From positions 6,952 through 70,951 of the forward strand of contig PMYD01000101.1 of assembly GCA_003171335.1 (NCBI GenBank): DNA of 64,000 bases. The letters are read 5' to 3'. Positions 4,148 to 61,546 of this stretch are shown one piece after another. The DNA comes from Phycisphaerales bacterium (GTDB lineage Bacteria; Planctomycetota; Phycisphaerae; SM23-33; FEN-1343). Each line of letters starts with the position of its first letter. Position 1 is the first letter of the stretch. Under the pieces are notes generated by a model. It made no database searches. It saw only the letters and a program-made list of their open reading frames with translations, and was not told the origin of the DNA. Position numbers and translations under genes: made by a program.

Positions 4148-4252
4148 ACCGGTACGCTAGGGGCGCCCATGAGGGCTGAGACGGCCGGCGGCCGGTACCC
4201 TTGGAACCTGATCAGCAACCCGGAACGGGGCTGCGTAGGGAAGCGACCGAAT
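4148..4252 (+). promoter_or_regulatory. TPP riboswitch (THI element) aptamer
   Basis: The conserved THI-box elements are present in order: GGGGCGCCC, GGCUGAGA, a P3 hairpin, UACCC, GAACCUGAUC and GCGUAGGGAA. Confidence 0.85.
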
Positions 4253-4296
4253 GTGACACGTTGCCCGCCGGCCATGCGGCCGGCGGCGAGTTGGAA

Positions 4297-4911: not shown

Positions 4912-4913
4912 GG

Positions 4914-5042
4914 GATTGCAAATTGCCAATTGCAAATTGCCAATTAAACGGCCGGAAGAACGCGCCGCTTGGAACGCGGGTCTTTCCCGCCGTTTCCGGC
5001 CGTTTCTTCAATTTGCAATTTGCAATTTGCAATTCGCAATCC
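4914..5042. repeat. ~130-bp hairpin element with heptad-repeat arms (ATTGCAA/ATTGCCA x4 opposite AATTTGC x4) and an inner GC-rich palindrome (AAACGGCCGGAA...TTCCGGCCGTTT)
   Basis: This is an inverted-repeat structure read directly from the sequence. A second family member lies at 34778-34889. Confidence 0.8.
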
Positions 5043-5083
5043 GAAGGGGCAAGACCTGGCTCGGCGGACCGGACCCCCATCAA

Positions 5084-13277: not shown

Positions 13278-13359
13278 TTGAAATCATTTCAAGTGTAAAC
13301 CGTTTACACTTGCAGCTTACAGCTTACCCAGCTTACCACTTCCAACTTAGTTGGAAGTG
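13278..13359. promoter_or_regulatory. Cluster of palindromes upstream of the lipoprotein gene
   Basis: The cluster contains TTGAAATcATTTCAA, GTGTAAACcGTTTACAC, (AGCTTAC)x3 and the 23-bp perfect palindrome CACTTCCAACTTaGTTGGAAGTG. Confidence 0.5.
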
Positions 13360-14367: not shown

Positions 14368-14407
14368 GGCCGGTCATTTTGACACCGGCGATAGGGCGTG
14401 TAAAGGA

Positions 14408-14509
14408 GGCTATAGGTTTTAGGCTGTAGGCTATAGGAACTGCTGGAAAAGAAAAGTCATCCACACCTTCCGACCGTTTCTACAGCCTACAGTCTAAAGC
14501 CTACAGCCT
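14408..14509. repeat. Inverted-repeat element GGCTATAGGTTTTAGGCTGTAGGCTATAGG...CTACAGCCTACAGTCTAAAGCCTACAGCC
   Basis: The inverted repeats can be read directly. A homologous element lies at 59328-59469. Confidence 0.75.
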
Positions 14510-15877
14510 CTTCTCTCCTCGCTTTTCGTGAAGGACCTGCATGGCCGCTACCCGGCGGTCCAGCACGTGCCAGAGCAGGGCGAAGAAGAGCGTGCCGAAG
14601 ATCGCGGCCATGGCGTTTTCGAGGAAAACGGCCAGGCTGCCGCCAACAGGGCCGGCCAGCGCCTTGGCGGCTTCGAGCAGCGCAGCGCACCCAACCGCCA
14701 GGGCCGCGCCCGCCAGCATGCGGTACCGCAGCCGCCAGGGCCGGCGCAGGCTGATGTAGAAGGTCAAGGTCGCACTGACGGCGGCGGCCATGGCCCAGCG
14801 CCGCAGCGTGGCGTAGTAGGCCCAGGCGTGCTCATGGCTGTACAGGCCCCACAGCGGCCAGCGGGTCTGCCCGCCTGAACTGCTCCAGGACAGGCACGAC
14901 AGCATGAAGATCAGCGATGTGGCGCAAAACAGCGCGCTGGCCGGCAGCGTAAGAGGCTGGCGATGCAGCGCCGGGGCCAGTGCGGCCGCGCCGAAACTCG
15001 CCCCCGCCGCCACCAGCACGGCCGCCAGGCTGACCGCCTCGGCCGGCACGAAGAGCCGGAGCAGCTCAATTGCCAGTGCCAGCATCGTCACCGCCGTTGC
15101 ACAGACGAAGGCGCCGCGCCGGCTGATTTCCTTGGGGCCCGTGGCCATCGTCAACAGCAGCGTCAACGCCGCAAAGCTGCCCGCCCGGCGCAGCACCCAC
15201 TGATGCCAGGGCGCCAGCGCCAAGCCGGCCGGGATGGACCATTTGACGCCATGCCACTGCACCGCCGCCACGGCCCAGGCGGGCCTGACCCGCCAGGCGA
15301 TGGCCGCCAGCAGCGCTGTCGCCAGCAGCACCGCGGCCAGGAGGGCGTGGCGATTCCGCAGGTAGAGCGCCAGGCGCCGGGCGACCCGGAGGGCGGGTTT
15401 GATCGCGATGGCGGCGAGAATCGCCCCCAGCAGGCCCCCGGCCGTGTTCATGGTGACATCCTGTAGGTCCGAGACCCGTCCGACGACAAAAAGCTGCATC
15501 GTCTCGATCGCCACGCTCACGCCAAACGCCATCGCGACGGCCAGCGGAACAAGCAGCCAGCTTCGCCGCTGGCCGTGCCAGGCGGCCACGACCAGCGCGC
15601 CCAGCGGGATAAAGAGCAGCACATTCTTCTGGCCATCGCTTGTGTGGATCGCCCCGAGACATTCCCGCATCGACGGCGCCAGCGCCTCGCGCCATTGCTG
15701 GCGAACGCGCGCGGGGGTGAAGTTCAGTGTCAGCGGCATCCAGCCGGCATATAACAGCAGTGCGGCGTAGGCCAGCAGGGCCAGCTTGCAGGTCTTGCGA
15801 TGCATGAGCGCACTTTCTTCCCCGCCGGCATCCCTGCGGCGATAATCCGCGCGACTAATGAGCAACTCCGGCCGCAC
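14501..15877 (-). CDS. VanZ-family polytopic membrane protein
   Basis: It has many TM helices and a VanZ-like N-terminal motif (ETMQLFVVGRVSDLQDVTMNTAGG). Confidence 0.5.
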   Translation of the reverse strand: MRPELLISRADYRRRDAGGEESALMHRKTCKLALLAYAALLLYAGWMPLTLNFTPARVRQQWREALAPSMRECLGAIHTSDGQKNVLLFIPLGALVVAAWHGQRRSWLLVPLAVAMAFGVSVAIETMQLFVVGRVSDLQDVTMNTAGGLLGAILAAIAIKPALRVARRLALYLRNRHALLAAVLLATALLAAIAWRVRPAWAVAAVQWHGVKWSIPAGLALAPWHQWVLRRAGSFAALTLLLTMATGPKEISRRGAFVCATAVTMLALAIELLRLFVPAEAVSLAAVLVAAGASFGAAALAPALHRQPLTLPASALFCATSLIFMLSCLSWSSSGGQTRWPLWGLYSHEHAWAYYATLRRWAMAAAVSATLTFYISLRRPWRLRYRMLAGAALAVGCAALLEAAKALAGPVGGSLAVFLENAMAAIFGTLFFALLWHVLDRRVAAMQVLHEKRGEKRL

Positions 15878-16033
15878 GGCGGCTATTTCCCTGCCTCTAA
15901 GGACAATACACTACGGCGTTTACCCCGGCAAGTGATGCATCTTGACCCACAGGATTGATGTCTCCCTTCCGGCAAGCCTGCCTTTCGGGAGCCGTGAGCG
16001 ACATTTGTTTCTGGCATGGCCTATGTTGTTGTC

Positions 16034-16222
16034 GTGTAACAGGCCCCGGCTTCAGCCGGGGTGATAGATACGCTGCAGGCACATGAGCCCGTTTCAACGG
16101 GCTTGTATTTGTTGGCTTTAGCCATAGCAGATGCCTCAAGGCACGACCCCAAGCCCGTTGAAACGGGCTGAATCTCTGGGCAGACCGCTTAACCCCGGCT
16201 GAAGCCGGGGCCTGTTACACCA
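16034..16222. repeat. ~190-bp symmetric element: GTGTAACAGG + hairpin CCCCGGCTtcaGCCGGGG + hairpin GCCCGTTtcaACGGGC, then the mirror-image copies
   Basis: The nested inverted repeats can be read directly. They lie in the divergent promoter region upstream of the ThyA-like operon. Confidence 0.7.
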
Positions 16223-16369
16223 CAAGACAACCTCGCCAGAAAATAAGGTCGCTCACCGGGGCCTGTCGGCTCATCGCCTCTGTAGACCGCCAGCCGCCTT
16301 TTGACTATATTGCGGACAACGCGCGAGGTTCCGGCGCCAGACAAGACTCCCGGGTGCGGAAGGAAGGGC

Positions 16370-17212
16370 ATGATCACTGTCCATATCGTCGAGCCGACGT
16401 TGCCCATGGCCTGGGAGAAGGCGGTCATCGCCTGCTGGGAGACGGGTGAGTCGTTCCGCACCGAGTACGACCGACCCGGCGACCCGGCCAGCCGCGATGT
16501 GACCGTGATGATCCGCGTGACACAGCCGTTCTCCGAGCCGCGGATTCACCGCGCCTTCCCCGGCGGCCTGGATGACCTGGAGAAGTACCGTAGCGAGGTG
16601 CTTTTCGGCGTGCACGATCACTGGGTGGACCCGGCCGCCGGCAAATGGGAGTACACGTATCACCAGCGGCTGTTTGCCTACGAGGTGCCCGGCGTGGGCC
16701 AGTTCGACCAGATCGCCGGCGTGGTAGCCAAGCTCAAATCCGCCGGCCACACGCGCCGCGCGCAGGCGGTCACCTGGCAGGTGTGGAACGACATGAACAT
16801 CGCCGATCCCTCCTGCCTCCAGCGGCTGTGGTTCCGTATTTCCGGCGGCCACCTGCACATGAACGTGCACATGCGTTCCAACGACGCCTACAAGGCGGCA
16901 TTCATGAACATGTACGCCTTCACCGAGCTTCAGCGCGAGGTGGCCGGCCAGGTGGGCGTCGAGGTGGGCGAGTACGTGCATATCGCCGACTCGTTCCACA
17001 TTTACGGCAGCTATTTCAAGGATTTCGAAGGTTTTCTCAGCACGGTCCGCACGCGCAGCGCCGCCGAGCGGGTCTTCACCAGCGACTTCGCCCGCGATTT
17101 CTTCATTGAGGGCTGCGATGTGCTGCTGGCCGAGAACGACATGCCCGAGGCGAAAAAGGCGCGCGTGCGACAGCGCAAAGAACAGTTGCAGGGGAAAGGA
17201 GCAACTGTATGA
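16370..17212 (+). CDS. Divergent thymidylate-synthase (ThyA) family pyrimidine C5-methylase or hydroxymethylase
   Basis: The catalytic Cys is in PSCLQ (compare ThyA PCH). The RS.D motif (HMRSNDAY), the D.H.Y motif (ADSFHIYGSY) and SRRA..W-like TRRAQAVTW are present. Confidence 0.75.
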   Translation: MITVHIVEPTLPMAWEKAVIACWETGESFRTEYDRPGDPASRDVTVMIRVTQPFSEPRIHRAFPGGLDDLEKYRSEVLFGVHDHWVDPAAGKWEYTYHQRLFAYEVPGVGQFDQIAGVVAKLKSAGHTRRAQAVTWQVWNDMNIADPSCLQRLWFRISGGHLHMNVHMRSNDAYKAAFMNMYAFTELQREVAGQVGVEVGEYVHIADSFHIYGSYFKDFEGFLSTVRTRSAAERVFTSDFARDFFIEGCDVLLAENDMPEAKKARVRQRKEQLQGKGATV

Positions 17213-21864: not shown

Positions 21865-21954
21865 GGGTGCCGTGACTGCGTCGTTTGCAGCCACGCCGAA
21901 TGGGATGATCCCTTCCCAGACGCGTGGTTGCACAAAGACGCAACCACGGCACCC
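21865..21954. repeat. ~90-bp double-hairpin element with GGGTGCCGTG terminal inverted repeats
   Basis: The structure is GGGTGCCGTGACTGCG..GCAGCCACG ... CGTGGTTGCAcaaagacGCAACCACGGCACCC. A homologous element lies at 61457-61546. Confidence 0.7.
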
Positions 21955-22017
21955 GACCTAGAGTCTACAGCTCTCGTCTTCTTGGGGACACACCTTGTGT
22001 CCCGATTATTTGCTCCC

Positions 22018-24562: not shown

Positions 24563-27424
24563 TTACAGGGCGGGCACCGTAATGGTGCTCGCGTTGATGG
24601 TCACCGAACCGTCTGAGTTTGAACCGCCCAGAAGCCGGCCCTCCACCACGGACCCGGTGTTAACCGTGATCGTCACTGCGGCAAGGATATTGCCCATGAA
24701 GATCGTGGTCGTATCGAGGGTCGCTGAAGTCCCGACCTGCCAGAAGATATTGCCGGCCTTGGCGCCGCCGGCCAGGACCACCTGGGCGCCGGGCCCCGTG
24801 GTGAGTGTGGACCCCATTTTGAAGATGAAGATCGCATTGGGGTCGCCCTGGGCGTCAAGGGTCACGATGTTGCCGGGGCCTGCCCCGGAGATCAATACCG
24901 AGGTCGAGTTCGTGTATAGGCCGGGGGTGAAGGTCAGCCCGCCCATGTTGCCGGGCAGACTTACTGAACTAACTGAACGGCTTACCGCATCGTTATACGC
25001 GGCCAACAGATCGGCCTGGGCCGTTATGATCGCCTGATCATCGACGTGGATGGTCCCGTTGACCTGCGCCGGCGGGATTCCCTGTGCACTTCCCGGGTTC
25101 AGCCCGACATCTCCGTTGATCTGGGTAGGACCAGTGCTAGTGATCGAAGCGGTAGCCATCACCGCGAAGGCGCCGGCCGACCCAAGGTTGATGGTCGCTT
25201 GCTCCATCTGCGTTCCGGTCGTAAATGTCCACACCTTGTCGCTTGCCAGCGGATTGCCGGCCAGGTCCTTTACCCCGCTGATCCCGCCGGCGATCGTAGC
25301 GGTAAATGTGGTGTCGGTGGCGAGATTGCTCGATGGTGTAAAGGTTGCAATCTTGCTTAGTGCATCATAGTTCACCGTCCCCGTCACAGGGGTATTGCCG
25401 GGCCCTGTCACCGTGAAGTTAGCGGTCGTGATGGTCAGCGGGTCCATCGACTCGCTGAAGGTCCCGGCGACCGTCTTATTGATGGCCACGTCGGTTTGGA
25501 GATCGTCGGGGTTGGTGGAGGTCACTGTGGGGGCGGTGGCGTCCGAGGTCGCCCCAGTTGTAAACGTCCAGGTGAAGTTGCTGGCCAGTGGGTTCCCCGC
25601 CAGGTCCTTGGCCCCGGTGGTTACGGTGGCCGTAAACGTGGTGTCGGGCGCGAGGGCGCTTGTGGGCGTGAAGGCCATTGTGGCGCCCACGCAAGTCACA
25701 GTGCCGATAACAGGAACCAGGCCGGGCGCTGTCACCGTCACGCTCGCTGCGGTGATCGTCAGCGGGTCCATGGCTTCGCTGAAGGTCGCCGCGACCTTCT
25801 GGTTCAGAGCGACGTCCGTTGCGTTATCTGCTGGGTCCGTGGAAAGCACTGTGGGGACGGTGGCGTCCGAAGTCGCCCCGGTCATGAAGCTCCAGACGAA
25901 GTTGTCAGCCAGTGGATTCCCAGCCAGGTCCTCGGCGCCGGTGGTGATCGTCACGGTGAAGAGGGTATTGGGCGCGAGGGTGCTTGTGGGCGTGAAGGCC
26001 ATTGTGGCGCCCACGCAAGTCACAGTCCCTATAACAGGAACCAAGCCGGGTCCTGTCACCGTCACGCTCGCTGCGGTGATCGTCAGCGGGTCCATCGCCT
26101 CGCTGAAGATGGCCGCGATCTTCTTATTGCGGGCCACTCCCGTGGCGCCGTTCAGAGGGTCTGTGGAACTCACTGTGGGGGCGGTGATGTCCGTGGTCTC
26201 CCCGGTAGTAAACGTCCAGGTGAAGTTGCTGGCCAAGGCGTTGCCCGCCAAGTCCTCGGCCCCGGTGGTTACGGTGGCCGTAAAGGTGGTGTCGGTCGCA
26301 AGGCTGCTGGTGGGTGTGAACGTGGCTGTGGTGCCGACGTACGTCACCGTGCCTATCACCGGCGTGGACTCCGGCCCGGTCACCGTGAAGCTCGTCGTGG
26401 TGATGGTCAGCGGGTCCATCGGCTCGCTGAAGGTCGCCGCGATCTTCTGGTTCAGAGCGACGTCCGTTGCATTACTTGCTGGGGCCGTGAAACTCACCGT
26501 GGGGGCGGTGGTATCCGGGATCGGGGTGTTCGATTCGAAATTCACGATCCGAAATTGCGAGTTCCTGATGTACGTGCTGGCGTCGAAGTTGAGGAGTGTG
26601 TCGTACCCCCGCCCGCCGTCGAAACGCACTCTATTGGAAAATACAGCGCGGGTGCCGGTCTGGCCGGTCACGCCGAACTGGAGAGTGTCGTCGCCGGCGC
26701 CCAACCAGATCCATACAGGCCCGTAGAACAGGGTGGGCGGGCTTAGGGGGCCGCCGTGGGATCCGATCTGAACGATGTCCGCACCCTGTCCGGTATACAG
26801 TCGCACCGCGCCGTGGAAGATCGAGTTGTCGACCGTGAAGATATCGGACCACCTCCCACCGACGATTTTGGTGTTCCGCTGGACTTCCACCGATCGCAGG
26901 GCGACATTCTCCACGCCAGAGCCAGGCCCGATCCTCAGATCCTTGCCGACCGTGGTATTGGCGATCGTGGTGGTGGTACTATTGTGGATATTAAGACTTC
27001 TCGCGACCTGCACGTTGTTGAGCGTGAGGATATTGGCACCCTTCTGGCCGTCGACCGAAACGTTGCCCGGAAGGCTCAGGCTGCTCATGGTCACGCTGTC
27101 GGCCCCGGCACCCATTCGGATGTCGACGCCGCGCGTTACGCCGCTCAGGATGACCGGATTGGCCTGGTTGTTGATGGCTGTGCCGCTGGCCCCGGAGATG
27201 CGCACCTGGTCGGCGTTCAGCCCGCTTTGATCCAGGACAATGACGTTCGCCGCGGCGTCACCCCGGATATTCAGGTTTCCATGCATTACCGAAGCAAGCA
27301 CGGTCCCGGATAGCAATACCCGGGGCTCGAGGGCTTCAATGGACGGACACGCCGGAGCCTTCTCGCGTTCGATGTCATGCTTTGAAGATATGCTTCGCCC
27401 CAGATGTCGCAGTGCGCGTTTCAT
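24563..27424 (-). CDS. Large secreted adhesin-like protein: N-terminal beta-helix region, 5-6 tandem Ig-like (Big_5/SbsA-like) domains and a C-terminal ice-binding-like (DUF3494) domain
   Basis: The signal peptide is MKRALRHLG... The ~100-aa repeats read TAPTV..TDP..ATDVA.N..I...FSE.MDP.TIT. The C-terminus reads INLGSAGAFAVMA...NGDVGLNPG. The full ORF extends to 27493 from a TTG start. Confidence 0.8.
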   Translation of the reverse strand: MKRALRHLGRSISSKHDIEREKAPACPSIEALEPRVLLSGTVLASVMHGNLNIRGDAAANVIVLDQSGLNADQVRISGASGTAINNQANPVILSGVTRGVDIRMGAGADSVTMSSLSLPGNVSVDGQKGANILTLNNVQVARSLNIHNSTTTTIANTTVGKDLRIGPGSGVENVALRSVEVQRNTKIVGGRWSDIFTVDNSIFHGAVRLYTGQGADIVQIGSHGGPLSPPTLFYGPVWIWLGAGDDTLQFGVTGQTGTRAVFSNRVRFDGGRGYDTLLNFDASTYIRNSQFRIVNFESNTPIPDTTAPTVSFTAPASNATDVALNQKIAATFSEPMDPLTITTTSFTVTGPESTPVIGTVTYVGTTATFTPTSSLATDTTFTATVTTGAEDLAGNALASNFTWTFTTGETTDITAPTVSSTDPLNGATGVARNKKIAAIFSEAMDPLTITAASVTVTGPGLVPVIGTVTCVGATMAFTPTSTLAPNTLFTVTITTGAEDLAGNPLADNFVWSFMTGATSDATVPTVLSTDPADNATDVALNQKVAATFSEAMDPLTITAASVTVTAPGLVPVIGTVTCVGATMAFTPTSALAPDTTFTATVTTGAKDLAGNPLASNFTWTFTTGATSDATAPTVTSTNPDDLQTDVAINKTVAGTFSESMDPLTITTANFTVTGPGNTPVTGTVNYDALSKIATFTPSSNLATDTTFTATIAGGISGVKDLAGNPLASDKVWTFTTGTQMEQATINLGSAGAFAVMATASITSTGPTQINGDVGLNPGSAQGIPPAQVNGTIHVDDQAIITAQADLLAAYNDAVSRSVSSVSLPGNMGGLTFTPGLYTNSTSVLISGAGPGNIVTLDAQGDPNAIFIFKMGSTLTTGPGAQVVLAGGAKAGNIFWQVGTSATLDTTTIFMGNILAAVTITVNTGSVVEGRLLGGSNSDGSVTINASTITVPAL

Positions 27425-27496
27425 GGGAAACTCCTTTAAAAGGTTATAAGGAACAACACTTTGGGCTTCCCCACGAACGGTGGGCGCGCCCAAAGT

Positions 27497-27672
27497 AGTT
27501 AGTTTCGGCTCGCCTCAAACGCTTCGGGGCTGACGTAGTCTAGCGAACTGTGCAACCGTTGGCGATTGTAAAAGACCTCGATGTGCTCAAAAATCGAGGG
27601 GAGTTCGAGGGACACCATACTTATCTCTTGACGCGTGGAGCGTGCGCGAATAACTTTCCAGCATGCCAGGCT
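27497..27672 (-). pseudogene. Remnant of an IS3-family transposase OrfB C-terminus
   Basis: The minus-strand translation reads ...[30 protein letters not shown], the canonical rve-domain C-terminal motif. The frame is interrupted upstream. Confidence 0.55.
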
Positions 27673-34777: not shown

Positions 34778-34889
34778 GAATTTCAAGTTGCAGATTTCAA
34801 ATTTCAAATTTGAAGAAAGAACCAGGCTCTCTCTGCCGAGCGGAGCTGGTTCCCCAAATTTGCAATCTGCAATTGGCAATTTGCAATCC
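34778..34889. repeat. Second heptad-repeat hairpin element (ATTTCAA/TTGCAAT arms, inner GAACCAG..CTGGTTC palindrome) between flgC and fliE
   Basis: It can be read directly and is the same family as 4914-5042. Confidence 0.75.
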
Positions 34890-34897
34890 CCCGGGGT

Positions 34898-46751: not shown

Positions 46752-46797
46752 CAGGCGAAAAGACATTCGGACAGACATGGGAGCACAGGTATTGTCC

Positions 46798-46926
46798 CCA
46801 CAGGAGCGAAATCTTCGCTCCTGTGGGAAGACCACAATGGGTCGTGGTGTGGCGTCAGGCCCTGCACAACGACTCCGGAGTTTCCGGAGTCAGTATGTGT
46901 AACAGGGGCGAAACTTTCGCCCCTGA
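46798..46926. promoter_or_regulatory. Two strong hairpins between motA and motB: CCCACAGGAGCGAAatcTTCGCTCCTGTGGG and GTGTAACAGGGGCGAAActTTCGCCCCTG
   Basis: The perfect 14-bp and 11-bp stems can be read directly. Confidence 0.6.
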
Positions 46927-46983
46927 AGACGCGGCATCAGTCATCAAACGAATTCGTTCTACAGACGCTCATAGAGGTTCGCC

Positions 46984-48303: not shown

Positions 48304-48307
48304 GAAC

Positions 48308-48328
48308 AACCGTAACAATGTTACGGTT
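48308..48328. promoter_or_regulatory. Perfect 21-bp palindrome AACCGTAACAaTGTTACGGTT directly after the fliL stop
   Basis: The palindrome can be read directly. Confidence 0.5.
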
Positions 48329-48645
48329 GAGATTTCCCGAGAGACTCCGGGCAGGTGTCGGGGAGCAGAGCTGCCGGCACACAGGCCACAACATATAGTG
48401 GTGCGGCCCGGCTCCTGCACAATGGACACCGGAAATCCTGATATGGCCGCGTGGGAATCATCAAGCTTGAGTTGGCGGCAACTGGAAACGGTTTCCATGT
48501 CCGCGATCCGTTACGGCAGGCGTGCCAAAATTCTGTTTCGTCGCCCTTTTTTTCGTGAAGTTTTACGGCGTCGCCGTTACATTCTGTGATGTTGAGACAA
48601 GTCACCTCCTGCAGTCAAGGATGACGACAGAAGGCGAGGTCAAGG

Positions 48646-58537: not shown

Positions 58538-59326
58538 ATGACCGGTCGAACCTCGACGCTGGCGGCGGAGGAAGTGGCTGAGCTGTGGAAGACTTACAAG
58601 TCCGGCCCAAGCCAAGCCCTTCGAAATGAGCTGATGGAGCACTACCTGCCCGTCGTGAAATACACGGCCGATCGCCTGTATGCCAAGCTGCCCGACGAGG
58701 TCGACAAGGATGATCTCATCTCGGCCGGCGTCTTCGGGCTGATTGACGCGATCAAGTCGTTCGACCTGGAGCGCGGGGTCAAATTCGAGACGTACTGCGT
58801 GCCGCGCATCCGCGGCGCCATTCTCGATGAGCTGCGCAGCATGGACTGGGTGCCGCGGCTGGTCCGCAGCCGCGCGCACAAGCTGGATGGCGCCATGCGC
58901 CATCTGGAGATGGAGCTGGGCCGCCGGCCGACGGAGGATGAACTCTCCAAGCGCCTGGCCATACCGCTGCCCGAAATGCGCAAGCTCCAGCGCGATGCCC
59001 ATGCGGTCGGGCTCATCAGCCTCAATCGCAAGTGGTTCGAGACGGACAGCCACAAGGATGTCCGCGAGATCGACATGCTGGAAGACAAGCGGGTGGAAAA
59101 CCCGCTGATCAAGGCCCAGGGCAAGGATGTGCGCGAACTCATCACCCGCGGGCTGAATCGCGCCGAGCGGCTCATCGTCATCCTGTACTACTACGAGCAG
59201 ATGACCATGAAGGAGATCGGCGAGACGCTGGATTTGTCGGAATCGCGCGTCAGCCAGATGCACTCGGCGATCCTGGAGCGCCTCAAGGTGCAGCTCACCG
59301 AACGGCAGAAGGAGCTGAATGCGTGA
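58538..59326 (+). CDS. fliA: Flagellar sigma factor FliA (sigma-28)
   Basis: It has sigma-70 region 2 and a region 4 HTH (LDLSESRVSQMHSAILERLK). Confidence 0.9.
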   Translation: MTGRTSTLAAEEVAELWKTYKSGPSQALRNELMEHYLPVVKYTADRLYAKLPDEVDKDDLISAGVFGLIDAIKSFDLERGVKFETYCVPRIRGAILDELRSMDWVPRLVRSRAHKLDGAMRHLEMELGRRPTEDELSKRLAIPLPEMRKLQRDAHAVGLISLNRKWFETDSHKDVREIDMLEDKRVENPLIKAQGKDVRELITRGLNRAERLIVILYYYEQMTMKEIGETLDLSESRVSQMHSAILERLKVQLTERQKELNA

Positions 59327-59327
59327 G

Positions 59328-59469
59328 GGGGCTATAGGCTTTAGGCTGTAGGCTATAGGCTGTAGTCTCGAAGTCGAAGGCTTGACTCGAAAACTCGGCG
59401 GCCTCGGTCGATATGAAATAGACTCACAAGCGGATCCCTACAGCCTAAAGCCTAGAGCCCACAGCCTAT
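59328..59469. repeat. Second TAGGCTGTAGGCTATAGG inverted-repeat element (GGGCTATAGGCTTTAGGCTGTAGGCTATAGGCTGTAG ... CTACAGCCTAAAGCCTAGAGCCCACAGCCTAT)
   Basis: It can be read directly and fills the fliA-downstream intergenic region exactly. Confidence 0.75.
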
Positions 59470-61456: not shown

Positions 61457-61546
61457 AAACTGAAACGGGTGCCGTGGTTGCGTTCTTCTGCAACCACGCG
61501 TTTGGGAAGATTCCTCCCCCTACGCGTGGCTGCAAACGGATGTAGC
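61457..61546. repeat. Second GGGTGCCGTG double-hairpin element
   Basis: The sequence is GGGTGCCGTGGTTGCGttcttcTGCAACCACGCG ... CGCGTGGCTGCAaacggatgTAGCCACGGAACCC. It is ~80% identical to 21865-21954. Confidence 0.7.

Follow-up and report, generated by a model that had tools for sequence, protein, structure and literature searches.

Repetitive extragenic palindromic (REP) sequences, and the bacterial interspersed mosaic elements (BIMEs) and REPINs that they build, occur with RAYT (TnpA-REP) transposase genes in E. coli and Pseudomonas, as REPtrons. Their unit is a short GC-rich hairpin with a conserved unpaired 5' tag; units form inverted doublets able to fold as a long hairpin, and copies are extragenic, dispersed and numerous. 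REPtrons hold a single Y1 HUH gene between inverted repeats, and gene-less doublets far outnumber the gene. Here we analysed a 64,000-nucleotide stretch of a Phycisphaerales bacterium (contig PMYD01000101.1; hereafter the window), in which a palindrome at 15994-16256 precedes a thymidylate-synthase-family (ThyA-like) gene. The family to which this palindrome belongs shares these features, probably including many dispersed copies per genome. The palindrome itself is probably a non-autonomous REPIN/BIME-like mobile element of a dispersed Phycisphaerae (Planctomycetota) repeat family, mobilised as single-stranded DNA by a Y1 enzyme.

Several other described systems come close. IS200/IS605 insertion sequences (ISs) such as IS608 and ISDra2 have subterminal hairpins with a 5' guide sequence, as this family does, and provide the model mechanism of transposition via single-stranded DNA. 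Among TnpA-Y1 enzymes, subclass 1.2 was described without terminal secondary structures or REPs, largely from Cyanobacteria and Bacteroidetes (PMC6006769), with a length of about 148 aa and a low copy number (PMC6006769 Table 1); class 3 was described with atypical hairpins from Planctomycetes (R. baltica) and Acidobacteria (PMC6006769). TIRtrons (TIRYT) likewise place Y1 genes between inverted repeats that are not of the GTAG type, form repeat families in their own right and are often dimers (Di Nocera et al. 2013, PMC3733652); like REPtrons, they agree with the present family in architecture. Palindromic miniature inverted-repeat transposable elements (MITEs; ERIC, Correia and Nezha/Chunjie-type) resemble the present element in being small, non-coding and intergenic, in folding as a long hairpin and, in some cases, in having short flank repeats. 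In the literature searched, coverage of which was incomplete, we found no description of this repeat family or of REP-like repeats in Phycisphaerae. Our reading would add a REP/REPIN-type system to this poorly studied, mostly uncultured class, and would identify a conspicuous palindrome that annotation might otherwise take for a regulatory RNA or an operator of the ThyA-like operon.

Architecture of the palindrome

The palindrome is imperfect, ~265 bp long and centred near 16127, with two inverted halves of ~130 nt. Three inverted-repeat pairs are nested inside it: 16029-16062 with 16192-16225 (34 nt, 97%), 16086-16105 with 16150-16169 (I2; 20 nt, 100%) and, outermost, 15994-16015 with 16235-16256 (I3; 22 nt, 86%). 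A preliminary description of the window had recognised the palindrome with its tags and hairpins, but it gave an extent of 190 bp and took the tags GTGTAACAGG as the element's termini. The third arm pair extends the element to ~265 bp, and the tags are subterminal, ~40 nt inside its ends. The best-conserved block is a 28-nt module composed of the 10-nt tag GTGTAACAGG and an 18-nt hairpin, CCCCSGC-TTYA-GSCGGGG, and this module is within the size range of REP/REPIN units (20-40 nt, GC-rich imperfect palindrome). Two modules are present in the window, starting at 16034 and 16193, one per strand and inverted.

On the + strand, the left half opens with the outer arm GTGAGCGACATTTGTTTCTGGC, the type A outer terminal motif (15994-16015, I3). 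The left tag GTGTAACAGG (16034-16043) forms the unpaired 5' foot of hairpin 1, CCCCGGC-TTCA-GCCGGGG (16044-16061), which linker 1 (16062-16085), differing among copies and between both arms, separates from hairpin 2. Hairpin 2 (AGCCCGT-TTCA-ACGGGCT, 16086-16103) is followed by TG, which completes the I2 arm (16086-16105), and then by a T-rich tail. The centre contains hairpin 3, GGC-TTTA-GCC (16114-16123, + strand), as read from the sequence, and hairpin 4, TGCC-TCAA-GGCA (16132-16143, + strand). Their cores, GGC-TTTA-GCC and GCC-TCAA-GGC, differ by a compensatory swap, and together they form an asymmetric centre that gives the element an orientation. The right half continues on the - strand with hairpin 2', the inverted copy of hairpin 2 (16150-16169; hairpin proper 16152-16169), the variable linker 2 (16170-16192), hairpin 1' (16193-16210; CCCCGGC-TGAA-GCCGGGG on the + strand), the right tag (16211-16220; CCTGTTACAC on the + strand) and the right outer arm (16235-16256, I3; GCCAGAAAATAAGGTCGCTCAC on the + strand). 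No credible small open reading frame (ORF) lies inside the element.

The predicted fold has an energy of ~-166 kcal/mol on either strand (z-score ~-15), with 0 shuffles as stable. On both strands the symmetry follows strict Watson-Crick pairing, as a property of the DNA. When the right half is reverse-complemented and aligned with the left, mean column identity is 83%, and this identity resides almost wholly in the short self-complementary hairpin blocks, while the linkers have diverged.

A metagenome assembly is the source of the window, and chimeric reads can create palindromes; the symmetry could have arisen locally by chance or as an artefact of assembly or amplification. This explanation has a negligible probability. 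The element sequence is identical in three independent assemblies (one from the European Nucleotide Archive (ENA), two from Joint Genome Institute (JGI) samples), which already refutes an artefact; moreover, the linkers of the two arms have diverged, >100 related modules exist elsewhere and no shuffle folds as well. Readings as an attC site, a dif/Xer site or a retron were dropped, as no integrase or reverse transcriptase lies nearby and consensus and size do not fit.

A dispersed, modular repeat family

Patterns of 17-20 nt covering a single hairpin or tag proved too unspecific, and two scans of viral contigs with them gave chance matches only (phage terminators, Gly-rich coding repeats); composite patterns were therefore used for the scans. 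The composite pattern GTGTAACAGGNCCCGGCNNNNGCCGGG occurs in at least 40 JGI metagenome contigs, of which a single sample contributed 18. A double hairpin-2 core pattern occurs at at least 22 loci in GTDB genomes, spread over six Phycisphaerae/Planctomycetota metagenome-assembled genomes (MAGs) and one labelled Acidobacteria, the binning of which is uncertain. By this restrictive pattern, MAG CAITIS01 holds at least 13 doublets; the window genome has 1 doublet within 64 kb. The proposal that tag and GC hairpin constitute a recurring module is thereby borne out, and the genome-wide count suggested along with it was decisive: the module recurs far beyond the window, in at least 40 metagenome contigs and several Phycisphaerae MAGs. 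A blastn search of the element against 72,556 plasmids gave no match.

A profile of the 28-nt module has 109 occurrences in the loci that we fetched (designated by L numbers below), nearly all as +/- inverted pairs with starts 95-160 nt apart. Hairpin-followed tags across these loci read GTGTAACAGG in 90/110 and GTGTAGCAGG in 14/110 cases, with the foot CAGG. The intergenic contexts of the copies are co-directional (18), convergent (3) or divergent (3).

The family is modular: the tag and hairpin 1 are almost invariant, and the cores and outer arms are interchangeable. Three core types were seen. The window type has hairpin 2, the centre and hairpin 2'; the second is one perfect hairpin with a stem of 25-30 bp, the arms of which covary from copy to copy; the third, 240 nt long and not palindromic, contains tag-like 12-mers repeated in tandem. 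The outer arms, ~35-50 nt outside each tag, fall into at least four unrelated types. That of the window, type A (GTGAGCGACNTTTNTTTCTGGC), recurs in five further loci (L029, L030, L061, L064 and L079), and a module lies 0-120 nt downstream in 27/28 outer-arm matches (13/14 for type A alone). Compared with REPs and REPINs, the doublets are larger (145-265 bp) and modular, have extra outer arms and in some cases 8-bp flank repeats, and reside in Phycisphaerae. Metagenome assemblies break at such repeats, and predictions of promoters and small RNAs (sRNAs) in these genomes can be misled by them.

Several variant forms were observed. At L033 1428-1465, a minimal 38-nt form consists of GTGTAACAGG, one hairpin and CCTGTTACAC, apparently a doublet reduced to that hairpin. 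At L022 1496-1900, a solo type A outer arm without a module lies directly upstream of an ORF resembling the C-terminal part of a tyrosine recombinase. Four loci considered as the end of an autonomous element (L032, L036, L044 and L047) instead contain a 520-620-bp gene-less variant beside a glutaminyl-tRNA synthetase gene. Among copies of this variant, the 12-mer GGCCTGCTACAC, a tag without a hairpin, forms tandem arrays of 1 to ~14 units (L032 2790-2830, L036 1287-1420 and L047 638-690).

Other tag-like sites in the window do not belong to the family. The motA-motB site at 46897 had been described as the same module; it carries the exact tag, but the hairpin that follows, GGGGCGA-AACTT-TCGCCCC, is unrelated and there is no inverted partner. 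This site fails the 28-nt profile at up to 4 mismatches, and its combination of tag and hairpin is absent from all 85 fetched loci. The TGTTACA-N22-TGTAACA arrangement on the merR side and the palindrome after fliL, also noted previously, both exist but lack the hairpin module and are not family members. Overall, TGTAACA occurs 5 times in the window against 1.2 expected, with 2/5 in the element itself, and GTGTAACAGG with at most 1 mismatch occurs 3 times against 1.3 expected.

Local hairpins are the conserved units

We examined stem pairing in 65 unbiased arms, that is, arms not selected by the scan pattern. Hairpin 1 has a perfect 7/7 stem in 58/65 of them, with at least six fully complementary stem variants. 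CCCCCGC/GCGGGGG (44) and CCCCGGC/GCCGGGG (9) are the commonest; CCCCTGC/GCAGGGG, CCCCGCC/GGCGGGG, CCACCGC/GCGGTGG and CCCCCGA/TCGGGGG are rarer. The loop reads TTCA in 40 arms and TTTA in 18.

We aligned 16 window-type copies after correcting for orientation, and their helices are 98-100% paired; hairpin 3 was left out of this score, its pairs being mis-mapped onto the alignment owing to a window-specific indel. Hairpin 2 (left) is invariant and hairpin 4 is paired in 100% of the copies, while hairpin 3 is conserved in most of them and in L005, a locus discussed below. The centre is flipped in 7/16 copies. In 6/16 copies, a T:A to C:G change in hairpin 2' keeps the local helix and breaks pairing with hairpin 2. 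The conserved units are local DNA hairpins. The covariation shows that these hairpins are maintained, not by which force, and templated mutation in DNA palindromes could contribute.

Linkage to a Y1 HUH transposase

At locus L024, inverted modules 800 bp apart enclose an ORF of 183 aa. The encoded protein matches Pfam Y1_Tnp PF01797 (E=3.4e-19) and the NCBIfam IS200/IS605 transposase model NF033573 (58.5 bits, cutoff 55). Aligned with IS608 TnpA, it keeps the HUH motif (HVH) and the catalytic Y-x3-Q (DYVANQ vs QYIENQ). We found 38 Y1 homologues, some labelled RayT by JGI, and inverted modules flank the Y1 gene in 5/5 examined loci (L024, L082, L083, L084 and L086). In the latter four, the modules lie ~25-100 nt from the gene, in inverted orientation, and in L083 a variant tag is repeated four times in tandem. 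A tblastn search with the Y1 protein found no further copy in all fetched loci. MAG CAITIS01, with its 13 doublets, appears to encode a Y1 enzyme, P0134.

In L082 and L083, hairpin 2 lies between the module and the Y1 gene, so that the unit reads tag, hairpin 1, linker, hairpin 2, Y1 gene, hairpin 2', linker, hairpin 1', tag. Because the arrangement in the window is the same minus the gene, the window element looks like a gene-less derivative of a Y1 unit.

The Y1 proteins are 140-183 aa long, with the motifs DH[IV]H/NHVH, WQxGYG and Y-x3-Q-x2-HH (YVxNQKEHH) and with H57, H59, W97, Q98, Y117, Q121 and H125 invariant in the alignment. A profile built from 19 homologues matches IS200/IS605 transposases (E about 1e-15), and IS608 and ISDra2, which share PF01797, are the closest solved homologues. 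The ends of IS200/IS605 elements differ in having both hairpins on the same strand and no inverted repeats, whereas the family modules are inverted in all 5 gene-bearing units; IS200/IS605 elements are also autonomous and multi-copy, whereas nearly all family copies lack the gene.

By its motifs only, the family enzyme matches TnpA-Y1 subclass 1.2, which shares DH[IV]H/NHVH, WQ and Y-x3-Q-x2-HH (PMC6006769); the length, ~140-155 aa, also agrees. The gene is apparently low-copy and not IS-like, again as in subclass 1.2. What differs is that the genes found here are flanked by genome-repeated tagged hairpins and occur in Planctomycetota. A Y1 clade described in 2018 as repeat-less would now be linked to a cognate tagged hairpin, and its function can be tested with one protein and a 28-nt oligonucleotide. 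The class 3 motifs W[TA] and YV[VI][AENY]EQ and the CnGA foot are not those of this system, and the sequences differ. Its YVxNQKEHH also differs from the Y motif of class-2 RAYTs, YI[HLR][QN]NP.

Because modules flank the Y1 gene in 5/5 loci, the Y1 enzyme is the likely reader of the tag. We infer that it recognises and mobilises the module, with single-stranded DNA as the substrate, on the precedent of the models established for IS608 TnpA and for E. coli TnpA-REP (PMC3479197, PMC6006769). The hairpins would fold wherever DNA becomes single-stranded, such as at replication forks; the enzyme would bind hairpin 1, and the 5' tag would serve it as a guide or recognition element. It would then cut and rejoin the single strand, and gene-less doublets would be moved or copied in trans into new intergenic sites. 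An inverted doublet would offer the same tag and hairpin on each strand, as in REPINs. The earlier suggestion of a TGTAACA-recognising factor is plausibly right in this form, with the Y1 enzyme as the likely reader of tag and hairpin on single-stranded DNA; as a dimeric operator it fails, the tags being 178 bp apart.

Element ends and flanking repeats

Several observations weigh against mobilisation by a Y1 enzyme of REP type. The profile of 19 homologues has no match to E. coli TnpA-REP even at E<=10, and the enzyme is not a classical RAYT. The classical REP tag is GT[AG]G or CGTC, whereas that of the family is GTGTAACAGG or GTGTAGCAGG with the foot CAGG. A tblastn search with the Y1 protein found no Y1 gene in the 64-kb window. 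The search patterns were built from the window element, making the copy counts biased and possibly lower bounds. The most conserved module lies 35-50 nt inside the element ends and the outer arms differ between subfamilies; a subterminal invariant module with varying true ends is odd. Finally, direct repeats of at least 8 nt are present in 5/44 copies, compared with 3.2% of controls (P about 0.012), when their position is restricted to the boundary zone and mismatched flanks serve as controls.

In three copies, exact 8-bp direct repeats border the outer arms immediately: L061 (CTTCTTTT), L066 (CTCTATCG) and L027 (ATTCTTAG). Near or other-length repeats flank L071 (7/8), the gene-bearing L084 (7 bp) and L073 (16 bp). 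In the window, the left flank CGGGAGCC (15986-15993), read against CGGGGCC at 16257-16263, may be the decayed remnant of a target duplication. When 120-nt flanks were searched generically for their longest direct repeat, the result was no better than the control. IS200/IS605 elements insert 3' of a fixed tetra- or pentanucleotide and leave no target duplication; no conserved flanking motif was seen at the outer boundaries of copies, and ~85-90% of copies have no flanking duplication.

Target duplications are not known from Y1 HUH transposition. The 8-bp flank repeats therefore keep alive the reading of the element as a conventional MITE moved by a DDE transposase, or hint at an unusual insertion mode. 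As a MITE, the element would end with its outer arms, 5'-(T)GTGAGCGAC...GTCGCTCAC(A)-3', and make an 8-bp target duplication, and the tag and hairpin modules would be internal cargo or sites colonised by REP-like sequences. The outer arms are indeed inverted repeats (22 nt, 86%) common to many copies, the enrichment and the exact and near repeats given above fit such ends, and the termini of L066 read TGTG...CACA. The evidence from the modules points the other way. The sole gene ever found between them is the Y1 transposase (5/5 loci), and they stand at a fixed side of nearly every outer arm (27/28). The arms are the least conserved part, with at least four unrelated types, and the inner module is nearly invariant. 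Most copies lack a duplication, and that of L073 measures 16 bp. Within the limited search space of 86 loci, none encodes a DDE transposase with these ends. The family thus differs from palindromic MITEs in that no DDE partner was found and in its core, a subterminal hairpin module tied to a Y1 enzyme, and we consider the MITE reading unlikely.

One IS was found, at L041 315-1760, inside a family hairpin 1. It encodes a 472-aa transposase, IS4-family by motif inspection, and has 21-bp inverted repeats CTTGTCATTACCCACATCTTT. These are unrelated to the family ends and the IS interrupts the hairpin, which speaks against the MITE reading; its transposase was rejected as a partner. The loops of the half-hairpins on either side of this IS are oriented in opposite ways, as if two insertions had recombined.

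A bolder form of the Y1 hypothesis seems doubtful to us: that an orphan IS200-like Y1 enzyme of subclass 1.2 mobilises a large modular hairpin-cassette family in Planctomycetota, and perhaps Acidobacteriota, via a 10-nt tag and hairpin 35-50 nt inside the ends, making 8-bp target duplications. If true, it would mean that insertion is staggered and involves both DNA strands, a chemistry that Y1 transposases are not known to have. The modular architecture and the sporadic 8-bp flank repeats are in any case material on the co-evolution of single-strand transposases with non-autonomous passengers.

A probable insertion in a variable intergenic region

The element sits in a divergent intergenic region of 490-560 bp between a VanZ-like gene (- strand, start at 15806 or 15877) and the ThyA-like gene (+ strand, ATG at 16370), which is followed by a methyltransferase gene and two HGD-D genes. 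It lies upstream of the ThyA-like start codon, at a distance of ~110 nt (16257-16369).

We ordered relatives by the identity of their ThyA-like protein; only four close relatives exist. In L003 (97%), the intergenic region is identical to that of the window. L004 (92%) has the same flanking genes and a region of similar length, alignable only over the gene-proximal 50-110 bp, and the palindrome is absent; ~600 bp of unrelated, lower-GC sequence occupy its VanZ-ThyA intergenic region (L004 2383-2983). L005 (85%) has a 310-bp nested palindrome of a different family branch. Its likeness to the window element is confined to the centre GGCTTTAGCC and to hairpin 2, where T:A has become C:G in a compensatory change; GTGTAACAGG is absent and the other hairpins are different. 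L006 (83%) has four inserted genes (L006 494-2923), two of them N6_N4 DNA-methyltransferase-like. In three more distant relatives (L015, L016 and L018; 78%), the region measures only 240-320 bp and the palindrome is absent. Among these relatives, the VanZ-ThyA intergenic region is a hot spot. Because its content differs between relatives, we read the element as an insertion in a variable spot and not as a conserved part of the promoter. An orthologous alignment for covariation at the locus was dropped, as the region is unalignable past the gene-proximal 50-110 bp. A ACAATACACTACGG-like motif (ACATACRCTAYGG, 15907-15925), outside the element and upstream of the insertion, is kept in relatives both with and without the element.

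The position of the element could suggest a cis element serving the host. It might be a structured 5' leader or an sRNA, separate VanZ from the ThyA operon as an insulator or as a terminator working in both directions, or act as the operator of a regulator that binds TGTAACA; the preliminary description had raised a regulatory or structural RNA module as one possibility. The element lies close upstream of the ThyA-like gene in a divergent region, and its predicted fold is very stable. A consensus scan marks hairpin 2 with its T-rich tail as terminator-like on the + strand, and secondary host roles have been given to REP elements in other bacteria (PMC3733652, PMC6006769). An Rfam run, proposed as a check of the RNA idea, gave no Rfam 15 match at the gathering threshold for the element; the only match in the window was a riboswitch elsewhere, described below. 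A permissive scan of 15800-16400 returned only spurious miRNA-precursor matches (E>=0.005), and Rfam found nothing on the loci of six relatives. The strictly Watson-Crick symmetry of both strands, the presence of the same element in dozens of unrelated intergenic contexts and its absence from the 92% relative and the 78% relatives, which have the same flanking genes, all speak against a dedicated role at this promoter, and the spacing of the tags is too wide for a dimeric operator. A host-serving cis element is thus very improbable. The element is most likely parasitic or domesticated mobile DNA of REP/REPIN type and not a dedicated regulator of the ThyA operon, and an effect on VanZ or ThyA expression, if any, would be secondary.

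Other repeats and features of the window

Three GC hairpins (46780-46930) lie in the 223 bp that separate the motA-like gene from the motB-like gene, two of the form ACAGG-RGCGAA-loop-TTCGCY-CCTG and one after an exact GTGTAACAGG. Hairpins of the form CAAnnGTAA-N5-TTACnnTTG lie at 13290-13313 and 48307-48330, with a compensatory difference (GT/AC vs CC/GG); the second is the palindrome after fliL.

A second palindromic repeat family consists of AGGCTRT (GGCTATA) heptamer arrays at 14404-14509 and 59326-59460, 45 kb apart, with inverted pairs 80-110 nt apart. Similar stop-codon-rich heptamer arrays occur in intergenic regions of relatives, for example (GTAGGCA)n in L084. Inverted CAATTTG/ATTGCAA heptamer arrays are found at 4912-5047 and 34784-34890, with related gaattgcg-type arrays in the JGI contigs L024 and L037. 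A small dispersed repeat of 44 nt, containing a hairpin, is present at 21912-21955 and 61466-61509, inverted, 39.5 kb apart and with 91% identity.

Tandem repeats include 3-4 copies of a 39-45-nt unit at 2107-2274, each with the hairpin TTCACTTCATCTC-GGA-GATGAAGTGAA, and ~3.4 copies of a 324-bp (108-codon) repeat at 25372-26517, within a large ORF on the - strand (24563-27514). A thiamine pyrophosphate (TPP) riboswitch lies at 4149-4258 on the + strand (Rfam RF00059, 57.3 bits; gathering threshold 54.3).

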